DNA from: Escherichia phage 212
Sequence record: PQ765507
Strand: one strand, 5' to 3'
Length of the DNA: 64,000 bases
Shown here: positions 48,631-50,139 of the stretch, one piece after another
Position numbering within the stretch: the first letter of the stretch is position 1
Layout: every line of letters begins with the position of its first letter
The notes under the pieces: model-generated
Database searches by the model: none
What the model was told of the DNA's origin: nothing
What the model saw: only the letters and a program-made list of their open reading frames with translations
Position numbers and translations under genes: made by a program

Positions 48631-48843
48631 ATGTTTAATAAACTGATTCAGAAAATTTTGGGAACAGAAATGGTTGAAGTGACTTATCGTGTTATTGATT
48701 TATCACCGCCATATGCTTGCGATGAAGATGCTATTAAAACTGTTGTTATGCGAAAAACATATCGCGGGCGGTCAATTAAAGAAAGATTGCCAGACCATGG
48801 CATGTGGTATGCAACCAAGATTATCAGTGTCAAAGATGTCTGA
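48631..48843 (+). CDS. hypothetical protein
   Basis: ORF track 70 aa. Confidence 0.45.
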   Translation: MFNKLIQKILGTEMVEVTYRVIDLSPPYACDEDAIKTVVMRKTYRGRSIKERLPDHGMWYATKIISVKDV

Positions 48844-49294
48844 GTTAGAAATCAGAAGCAATTTCCCATGGCCGTCATGTGCATTAAGTAACTTTGCTAA
48901 ATGGCCTTTTGTTATGGAGGGTATCCAGTTTGGAGGTCTTGAAGGCTTCCTCCAAGGGTGCAAGGTGAGAAATAATGAACAACAAAAACGTATATTTGGG
49001 ATGTCCGGATTGGCCGCCCAGCAAAGTGGAAGAGCTTATGCAAGAGCTGCGGACCGTGGGACGCTTTTCTGGCTTGGAATTCCCTTTTCAAGATACTCGA
49101 CATCATGGAAAGAGTTGTATACAAATGCATATTTTGAAGCAGCGCTCCAAAACAAAGGATTCCGCGACGCATTACAAGCCACAAAGGGCAAAGTTTTAAA
49201 GCATTCGATGGCAAGTCACCTTACTGTTCATGATACAATATTAACTGAACAAGAATTTATTGACATACTTAACCAATTGAGAGATGCATTATGA
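48836..49294 (+). CDS. NADAR-family (YbiA-like) protein, putative ADP-ribose-processing enzyme
   Basis: 152 aa; motif ALSNFAKWPF...G..F.G.EGFLQ resembles the FSNFAAWP...EHYFQ core recalled for E. coli YbiA/NADAR. Confidence 0.5.
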   Translation: MSELEIRSNFPWPSCALSNFAKWPFVMEGIQFGGLEGFLQGCKVRNNEQQKRIFGMSGLAAQQSGRAYARAADRGTLFWLGIPFSRYSTSWKELYTNAYFEAALQNKGFRDALQATKGKVLKHSMASHLTVHDTILTEQEFIDILNQLRDAL

Positions 49295-50139
49295 AACCCG
49301 TTATTTTAACAGATATTGATGGCGTATGTTTGTCATGGCAGTCTGGCTTGCCTTATTTCGCTCAAAAATATAATTTACCCCTGGAACACATCCTTAAGAT
49401 GATTCAGGATGAAAAATTTGTGACCCCTGGTAAACTTTTCAATTGTGATGAAGAGTTAGGCGCGCAGTTAATTGAAAAATATAACTGTTCAGATTTTATT
49501 CGCTATTTGTCTCCTTACACAGATGCGTTAAGGGTTATTAATAACCTCAAAGAGCAATATGATTTTGTGGCTGTTACAGCCCTGGGTGATTCTATTGATG
49601 CTCGCCTGAATCGTCAATTCAACCTGAATGCTTTGTTCCCTGGGGCGTTTAAAGAAGTGATGATGTGTGGTCATACAGCCTCTAAAGAAGAGTTATTTCA
49701 GAAGGCAAAAGACAAATATAATGTCGTTTGTTATATTGATGACCTTGCACACCATTGCGACCATGCGAGTGAAATCCTTGAAGTCCCGGTTTATTGGATG
49801 GCCCGTGGCGAACGTGATGCTATTCCTAAAACAGCTTCCAAAGTTTTTAATTGGGACGATGTAGCTGGACAGCTTAAACTGAAACACAAAGATGAACCAG
49901 TCAAACCAGAATACACCCCAGATGAACTCCGTAAACTGGACGAGCTGTTTCGTGAAACTCGCCGTCTTCAGCAGCAAATGCAGCAAGGCTGGCAGCCAGG
50001 TCAACCATGGACTCCTGGATATAATCCAGCGTATCCATATCAATATAATCCAGCGTACCCATATCAATATGGTCCACGCGTAGGTACTGGCATTGAATAT
50101 TGGTACAATCAACCGACCGGTGGCCAAGGGGGTAATTGA
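49291..50139 (+). CDS. HAD-superfamily hydrolase with Q/P/Y-rich low-complexity C-terminal tail
   Basis: N-terminal ILTDIDGV (HAD motif I); C-terminal ...GYNPAYPYQYNPAYPYQYGP... encoded by a 24-bp tandem repeat. Confidence 0.55.
   Translation: MKPVILTDIDGVCLSWQSGLPYFAQKYNLPLEHILKMIQDEKFVTPGKLFNCDEELGAQLIEKYNCSDFIRYLSPYTDALRVINNLKEQYDFVAVTALGDSIDARLNRQFNLNALFPGAFKEVMMCGHTASKEELFQKAKDKYNVVCYIDDLAHHCDHASEILEVPVYWMARGERDAIPKTASKVFNWDDVAGQLKLKHKDEPVKPEYTPDELRKLDELFRETRRLQQQMQQGWQPGQPWTPGYNPAYPYQYNPAYPYQYGPRVGTGIEYWYNQPTGGQGGN

Follow-up and report, generated by a model that had tools for sequence, protein, structure and literature searches.

Escherichia phage 212 (sequence record PQ765507) is considered here through a stretch of 64,000 nucleotides, which we call the window, and more precisely through two overlapping open reading frames (48836..49294 and 49291..50139) that lie shortly upstream of the genes for DNA ligase and two Alt proteins. 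We consider it very probable that the first frame is adfN, encoding a de-ADP-ribosylase directed against DarT1, that the second encodes a HAD phosphatase related to the NT5C family, that the two proteins do separate jobs and that their adjacency reflects conserved gene order. The window comes from a Gaprivervirus, a T-even phage of the SP18 type, and shows the order 30.4-30.3-30.2-30.1-ligase-altA-altB; by megablast, its DNA is matched at 95-96% identity in the Gaprivervirus phages TH44, P479 and PSD2001 and at 91% in Shigella phage SP18. The same genes are annotated in the same order in SP18, and the order in T4 is likewise identical; because of this agreement, the two frames are assigned as 30.3 and 30.2 in a phage of the T-even type. 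Both lie where a first-pass annotation, made from the letters alone, had placed them, with the sequences that it described.

Gene 30.3 is adfN

The features of the gene are as follows.

48836..49294, + strand: adfN (gene 30.3), a phage-type NADAR DNA ADP-ribosylglycohydrolase by homology, 152 residues, full length (PF08010 match, identity to T4, fold)
48941..48964, + strand: codons E36 to K43 (EGFLQGCK), with the catalytic Glu and Lys of AdfN (conservation in 78 homologues; codons checked)
49202..49204, + strand: codon of H123, a His where other NADAR families have Glu/Asp, invariant in the 78 homologues
49247..49291, + strand: C-terminal helix of AdfN, residues 138-152 (138-151 in the model), the segment lost in the inactive RB69 allele

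By sequence and by predicted fold, the gp30.3 of the window is an orthologue of T4 AdfN and a member of the NADAR superfamily. It matches the Pfam model PF08010 (Phage_30_3) with an E value of 5.7e-64 and a score of 214.5 bits (cut-off 36), the match taking in positions 2-138 of the 138 in the profile, and it is identical to T4 gp30.3 at 85% of residues, gap-free across all 152 and with 23 amino-acid substitutions; to the SP18 orthologue, the identity is 97%. The first-pass annotation had recognized a NADAR-like core in this frame, which carries ALSNFAKWPF...EGFLQ, and had taken the absence of a NADAR profile hit as a sign against its own call. On this point the result is divided. The Pfam NADAR model PF08719 gave no match to the window protein in hmmscan even at E<=10, and we attribute this miss to the fact that Pfam splits the NADAR superfamily into separate models; PF08010 and PF08719 are both present in several gp30.3 homologues of about 40% identity. 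The call itself stands on PF08010, on profile comparison and on fold: hhalign of a profile of 78 gp30.3 homologues against E. coli YbiA gave a probability of 90% and an E value of 1.5e-6 over 104 columns, pairing up the SNFA and E...K motifs, and the AlphaFold2 (AF2) model, at a mean predicted local distance difference test score (pLDDT) of 95.4, has the YbiA/NADAR fold. Its neighbours in the PDB are YbiA (2b3w; E 7e-5, TM score 0.69), the P. nicotianae NADAR protein 8bau and the G. lovleyi NADAR protein 8bat, the next match beyond these three being at E 5. Among PDB sequences, the gp30.3 profile found 2b3w at E 0.017 by hmmsearch and the single sequence found nothing by phmmer; an NCBIfam search gave no match for gp30.3 or gp30.2.

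The conserved catalytic residues that the first-pass annotation had wished to see are all present. E36 is invariant in the 78 homologues, K43 is at least 90% conserved, and H123 stands directly after a strand at residues 120-122 in the model; a His in place of Glu/Asp is the defining mark of the phage gp30.3 NADAR family (PMC11125620, PMC12945103). The C-terminal helix is also intact in the window allele, as the gap-free alignment with T4 indicates. In RB69, a frameshift deletes the last 15 residues, protection is abolished and the phage is sensitive to DarTG1 (PMC11825919).

The function of the T4 orthologue, published in 2024-2025, is already known. T4 gp30.3, named AdfN, is required for resistance to DarTG1 and suffices to confer it (Johannesman et al., Nat Commun 2025, PMC11825919); it strips ADP-ribose off DNA in vitro, with an E36A protein as the inactive control, and E36 and K43 are the two catalytic residues that were targeted by mutation (PMC11825919). 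In vitro it cleaves guanosine-linked and not thymidine-linked ADP-ribose (Toxins 2024, 2026; PMC11125620, PMC12945103), and the substrates reported for NADAR proteins are ADP-ribosylated bases, guanine or for some families cytidine, in DNA and RNA (PMC11125620, PMC12945103). A transposon study of T4 (HIDEN-SEQ) found 30.3 dispensable on K-12 and entirely lost under DarTG1 (bioRxiv 10.1101/2025.11.20.689424). In the absence of infection, T4 AdfN fails to relieve the toxicity of DarT1, and its full activity is reported to need an unidentified T-even factor (PMC11825919). We infer, from the 85% identity to T4, the intact catalytic residues and the fold, that the window allele has the same chemistry, and the mechanism shown for T4 is transferred to it: host DarT1 would ADP-ribosylate guanines in replicating phage DNA, and AdfN would hydrolyse the base-ribose bond, so that ADP-ribose is released and the DNA can be replicated again. 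An anti-defence role against host DarT-like systems, one of the possibilities raised in the first-pass annotation, is thus the published function of the T4 protein (PMC11825919, PMC11125620, bioRxiv 10.1101/2025.11.20.689424); for the role against NAD-depleting systems that was raised beside it, we found nothing in support.

No DarT gene stands next to adfN in the window; its neighbours 30.4, 30.2, 30.1 and the ligase gene carry no DarT domain, and adfN is therefore an orphan antitoxin-like gene, in agreement with the description of its T4 counterpart (PMC11825919). The exact protein sequence of the window was not found in a collection of 15 billion proteins, and gp30.3 is present in 1510 of 50,697 phage records. 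Among its relatives is a homologue from Methylocystis (P0046).

Two further observations concern the reading frames at this gene. The counterpart of T4 30.3', annotated with 74 residues in T4, lies inside adfN in another frame (48975..49199, + strand); it stays open through 76 codons in T4, the window, P479, PSD2001, CJ20 and DK-13 and through fewer in SP18 (61), in Aeromonas phage 31 (62) and in EcS1 (31), and it probably represents no conserved gene. An apparent extended AdfN of 161 residues in PSD2001 and CJ20 was rejected, the annotators having merely chosen an upstream in-frame ATG; the extra ~190 bp in these two phages are a second 30.4-type gene, and two tandem genes of this type are found in TH44 as well.

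Gene 30.2 encodes a HAD phosphatase-like protein

The gene and its conserved core comprise the following features.

49291..50139, + strand: gene 30.2, HAD-superfamily phosphatase-like protein of 282 residues, starting MKPVILTDIDGV (phrog_420, of unknown function, E 2.7e-78)
49291..49890, + strand: HAD core and C1 helical cap, residues 1-200 (motifs and model)
49312..49320, + strand: HAD motif I, D8/D10, invariant in 85 homologues
49576..49578, + strand: HAD motif II, T96, at least 90% conserved in the 85 homologues
49684..49686, + strand: HAD motif III, K132, invariant in the 85 homologues
49738..49743, + strand: HAD motif IV, D150-D151, invariant in the 85 homologues

The first-pass annotation had noted a HAD motif I in this protein, and this observation extends to the whole active site: D8 and D10 are intact, the other HAD motifs are conserved, W16, R108, N111 and R172 are also invariant in the 85 homologues, and the AF2 model has a Rossmannoid HAD fold with a four-helix C1 cap above the active site. 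A profile search, which had been proposed as the check, did not by itself give a HAD assignment. No curated HAD model was above threshold for gp30.2, the best in Pfam being HAD_2 (E 0.14; 12.7 bits, with the cut-off at 23.8); PF06941 (NT5C) did not match the window protein, and phmmer against PDB sequences gave at best E 0.2-0.4.

The family context is more informative. A profile of the gp30.2 core retrieved 1427 representatives at E<=1e-3 from a library of 1.84 billion proteins, and among 92 distant relatives (profile E 1e-30 to 1e-18) NT5C was matched in 34 (E<=1e-3), Hydrolase in nine and HAD_2 in six; two relatives that were checked, P0340 and P0360, exceed the NT5C gathering score. Because 34 of these 92 proteins match it, NT5C is the nearest curated family of gp30.2, and because the NT5C model does not match the window's own protein, we describe gp30.2 as NT5C-like and not as a member. 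The HAD call can thus be sharpened, as far as sequence and model go, to an NT5C-like phosphatase. A Phe at position nucleophile+8 has a base-stacking role in the nucleotidases cdN and mdN, and W16 of gp30.2, at the same spacing, is paired with the mouse cdN Phe by HMMER, in weak alignments only (E 0.3-0.4).

In HAD enzymes, two aspartates in motif I go with phosphomonoesterase and not dehalogenase activity, and a capped active site goes with small substrates, macromolecule-acting members being capless. Since gp30.2 has both motif I aspartates and its active site is capped, it most likely dephosphorylates small molecules and is neither a dehalogenase nor a polynucleotide phosphatase; its substrates are probably (deoxy)nucleotides, as for the NT5C enzymes to which it would be related. 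From its invariant motifs and fold it would act as a Mg-dependent phosphomonoesterase with a C1 cap. A search of the literature on gp30.2 or a T4 HAD nucleotidase found no paper on the function of any gp30.2 homologue. In T4, 30.2 is a non-essential gene in which transposons hit all 72 TA sites, and insertions are neutral in minimal medium (-0.10) (bioRxiv 10.1101/2025.11.20.689424).

Gene linkage and probable separate functions

Gene 30.2 keeps the ligase gene as a neighbour. In every context examined (T4, SP18, Acinetobacter phage fHyAci03, a Shewanella-phage contig and EcS1), 30.2 lies directly upstream of ligase or one gene off, and directly upstream in the last three; this linkage persists in phages in which 30.1 and 30.3 have moved or are lacking, and it is steadier than the 30.3-30.2 pair. 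Such linkage, together with a weak match of residues 74-161 to the polynucleotide kinase family phrog_415 (E 6.8e-4), would suit a nucleic-acid 3'-phosphatase that works with the downstream ligase, as an analogue of the healing and sealing carried out by polynucleotide kinase (PNK) and ligase. We consider this quite unlikely: the modelled four-helix cap lies over the active site, in a place where it favours small substrates, the nearest curated family of the distant relatives is NT5C and not PNKP, a Pnk with its own HAD_PNKP domain is already encoded nearby in these phages, and adjacency to ligase may be mere core gene order.

The assignment of 30.3 and 30.2 to separate jobs differs from a suggestion of the first-pass annotation, by which the NADAR protein, the HAD protein and Alt could together be one toolkit for ADP-ribosylation and its removal. 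In variants of this proposal, gp30.2 would process the ADP-ribose that is released or would potentiate AdfN, and AdfN would reverse or balance the action of Alt. The stop and start of 30.3 and 30.2 do overlap (ATGA), the two genes are neighbours, and have alt close by, both in Tevenvirinae and in Acinetobacter phage fHyAci03, and the T-even factor that T4 AdfN is reported to need (PMC11825919) leaves room for a partner. The genetics of T4 point elsewhere. In transposon sequencing (Tn-seq) under DarTG1, 30.3 was the only one of these genes to be strongly depleted (log2 fold change -7.25, q=0), whereas 30.2 (-0.12, p=0.61) and alt (-0.01, p=0.97) were unaffected and alt.1 was flat (bioRxiv 10.1101/2025.11.20.689424). 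Gene order at greater distance agrees with the genetics: in Aeromonas phage 31 the 30.3 homologue stands beside nrd genes, unlinked from 30.2, ligase and alt; in EcS1 it is ~60 kb away from all three; within 8 kb of the 30.3 homologue in these two phages there is no homologue of 30.2 or 30.4; and the Shewanella-phage contig has 30.2 and ligase with no 30.3 beside them. Finally, the chemistry differs. Alt is a protein ADP-ribosyltransferase (T4 annotation), and its target residue is arginine; the reported NADAR substrates carry base-linked ADP-ribose (PMC11125620, PMC12945103). Because of the T4 Tn-seq data, the distant gene orders and the difference between base-linked and protein-linked chemistry, a joint toolkit is unsupported and, in our judgement, very unlikely. 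Both 30.3 and 30.2 are quasi-core genes of T4-like phages, and their adjacency and their closeness to ligase and Alt are conserved gene order with no demonstrated joint mechanism.

Two candidates for the factor that potentiates AdfN were set aside. For gp30.2, the neutral Tn-seq value (-0.12) speaks against this role. In the same experiment 30.4 was partly depleted (log2 fold change -1.79, q 0.014; bioRxiv 10.1101/2025.11.20.689424), and gp30.4 is the less likely factor in its turn: the end of its gene runs into the start of adfN, its sequence differs greatly between close phages, and next to adfN in Aeromonas phage 31 and in EcS1 there is no counterpart of it. The depletion is more likely a polar effect on adfN than a real contribution. 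The 30.4 protein of the window is 54% identical to that of SP18 and 30% to that of T4, compared with 100% for 30.5 and 97% for 30.3 to SP18. In EcS1 (locus L005; 2751..3206, 8001..8447), the adfN homologue lies ~5 kb from a gene for the anti-CBASS protein Acb1 and near a NUDIX gene, and this region of small genes of unknown function may be an anti-defence neighbourhood.

The C-terminal tail of gp30.2 and its 24-bp repeat

Beyond its HAD core, gp30.2 continues with these features.

49918..49986, + strand: long helix between core and tail, residues 210-232, DELRKLDELFRETRRLQQQMQQ (AF2 model, pLDDT about 90)
49987..50136, + strand: disordered tail rich in G, P, Y and Q, residues 233-282 (pLDDT 42-66)
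50020..50043 and 50044..50067, + strand: 24-bp tandem duplication encoding YNPAYPYQ twice, with one mismatch between the copies (Tandem Repeats Finder and sequence)
50083..50118, + strand: conserved C-terminal motif GTGIEYWYNQPT, residues 265-276, occurring once in the window

The last 50 residues contain ten G, nine P, nine Y, six Q, four N and three W, and Tandem Repeats Finder detects 2.6 copies of a 24-bp unit over 50019..50082, with a score of 98. The Q/P/Y-rich C-terminus with its repeat, described as unusual in the first-pass annotation, is therefore real, as is the copy-number variation among isolates that was to be checked, with one or two copies and two in the minority; what the comparison does not bear out is a designed repeat domain. 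Among eight close Gaprivervirus genomes, only P479 has the two-copy allele of the window, and SP18, TH44, CJ20, TH15, TH54, DK-13 and PSD2001 have one copy, as do VR20 and others; PSD2001 has an additional 9-bp deletion in the Q-rich stretch. In the cluster of proteins at >=90% identity, two copies occur in 2 of the 15 members listed, one of them being the window's own sequence, and lengths run from 263 to 282 residues with every difference within the tail linker. Because most close relatives have one copy and the indels are confined to the linker, we conclude that the repeat is a recent, slippage-type, in-frame duplication in an indel-tolerant linker and a minority allele.

A functional repeat domain tuned by copy number, in the manner of contingency loci, would also give an in-frame duplication and tails that vary in length among close relatives (263-282 residues). 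Such a domain is highly improbable: only one or two copies are seen, the tails otherwise differ in length through small indels at other places in the linker, unrelated to the repeat, many family members are about 200 residues long and have no tail, and a scan of IMG/VR for the junction between repeat copies gave no matches.

Within the indel-tolerant linker region, it is the end of the tail that is conserved. GIEYWYNQP does not vary among the close relatives, for all the indels in the linker before it; the T4 tail ends in GGIEYLYNRPT, and those of Klebsiella and Enterobacter-type phages in GTGIEYLNRQPT. An end of the form G-x-G-IEY-x3-QPT is shared by a large group that includes T4, Klebsiella-type phages and the window, and in other family members the P/W/Y-rich tails differ in length and finish with short motifs that are specific to the lineage. 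From this sequence pattern, the fixed terminal peptide is probably a docking motif for a partner. A more specific proposal is that gp30.2 is an unrecognised phage nucleotidase, divergent and NT5C-like, which the P/Y/W-rich linker and the GIEY-x3-QPT peptide tether to a phage or host partner; we offer this as a speculation that is unlikely to hold in full. If it did, the partner could be, for example, the ligase or replication machinery or a complex that synthesizes deoxynucleoside triphosphates (dNTPs), and the enzyme would adjust one particular nucleotide pool or clear a nucleotide involved in defence, with effects visible only on other hosts.

Gene order and packing of the locus

The genes around adfN and 30.2 are as follows.

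48631..48843, + strand: gene 30.4, 70 residues (phrog_2042); its stop overlaps the adfN ATG (ATGTCTGA)
50139..50417, + strand: gene 30.1 (DUF3045; Pfam PF11243, E 1.8e-18); its ATG overlaps the 30.2 stop (TGATG)
50421..51959, + strand: gene 30, ATP-dependent DNA ligase (Pfam DNA_ligase_A_M, E 2e-28)
52018..53892, + strand: altA (Pfam ADPrib_exo_Tox, E 7.2e-16, above the gathering score; named alta in SP18)
53902..55962, + strand: altB (Pfam ADPrib_exo_Tox, E 8.9e-20, above the gathering score; named altb in SP18)

From 44 to 56 kb, all genes are on the + strand, in the order cd, 31, rIII, 30.9, 30.6A, 30.8, 30.7, 30.6, 30.5, 30.4, 30.3, 30.2, 30.1, gene 30 and the two alt genes, and from 30.4 to 30.1 each stop overlaps the next start (ATGTCTGA, ATGA and TGATG in turn). 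For 30.1, a mechanical list of open reading frames gives a TTG start at 50136; the in-frame ATG at 50139 is the likelier start, because it overlaps the 30.2 stop and matches the SP18 annotation. The two Alt genes noted downstream in the first-pass annotation are both real, at a distance of 1.9 kb from 50139 and not the 3 kb given there. Both paralogues are full-length (624 and 686 residues), as in SP18, and in T4 a single alt is accompanied by alt.-1 and alt.-2, remnants that the annotation ascribes to an old duplication of part of the gene.

Strong GC hairpins that resemble terminators, each with a T run behind it, are found upstream at 46813..46832 and 47200..47215 (both + strand), and a third strong hairpin, called on the - strand with its A-run on the + side, lies just past the ligase gene at 51961..51980; together, the three flank the block from 30.8 to 30. 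A promoter scan gave no enrichment (14 found, 15.5 expected). A 30.6A-like gene (46851..47201, 116 residues) encodes a proline/tyrosine-rich stretch, GPYNEIPGHHPVAYVPPSPPVYIPPAKPYDD, whose composition recalls the gp30.2 tail.

Significance

As an orthologue of a counter-defence enzyme that was characterized genetically and biochemically in 2024-2025, the adfN of phage 212 is a new allele and brings no new biology. Its practical value lies in annotation: each of the two genes occurs in ~1500 GenBank phage records, and those listed are labelled 'hypothetical protein'. The name and function of AdfN may be transferred to close full-length homologues that keep the catalytic residues, for which resistance to DarTG1 is predicted. 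The residual interest is in gp30.2, present in 1438 of 50,697 phage records and nearly always annotated as hypothetical, a widespread, quasi-core, ligase-linked, HAD phosphatase-like protein with intact catalytic residues.

Comparison with known systems

The closest characterized system is T4 AdfN, which shares with the window allele the locus (between 30.4 and 30.2), the length of 152 residues, E36 and K43, the family His, the C-terminal helix and the predicted fold. The two differ by 23 substitutions, and the anti-DarTG1 activity known for the T4 protein is expected of the window protein by analogy. The NADAR domain of DarG1, from the DarTG1 system of Geobacter/Trichlorobacter lovleyi (8bat), and YbiA (2b3w) have the core fold and the Glu/Lys pair in common with gp30.3, and guanine de-ADP-ribosylation chemistry is common to DarG1-type NADAR proteins and AdfN, as established for the T4 protein (PMC11825919, PMC11125620, PMC12945103). 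DarG1 is encoded beside the DarT toxin, has an N-terminal extension and carries Asp, whereas gp30.3 is an orphan, lacks the extension and carries His, and YbiA carries Glu. Although E. coli YbiA, annotated as an N-glycosidase in MG1655, is the best match in fold and profile, it is extremely improbable that gp30.3 is a housekeeping N-glycosidase of the YbiA type, detoxifying riboflavin intermediates, and not a DNA de-ADP-ribosylase, given the His in gp30.3 and all 78 homologues where the YbiA family has its last-strand catalytic Glu, and the DNA activity and DarTG1 phenotype of the 85%-identical T4 protein.

For gp30.2, the nearest counterparts are the enzymes of the NT5C family (PF06941), such as cdN and mdN, the cytosolic and mitochondrial 5'(3')-deoxyribonucleotidases, and the dTMP phosphatase of phage PBS1; the latter, Dtm, is a characterized phage member of the family (PMC12697855). 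The HAD fold with its C1 cap and the DxDGV, T, K and IDD motifs are shared, and the C-terminal extension of 80 residues, made up of a helix and a disordered tail, is missing in the NT5C enzymes. T4 gp30.2 (NP_049815, 'hypothetical protein') is the orthologue in the same position, 66% identical overall and nearly identical in the core; its tail has diverged (278 residues in all, compared with 282) and has kept the G-IEY-x-Y-N-x-PT motif and the P/Y/W-rich character.

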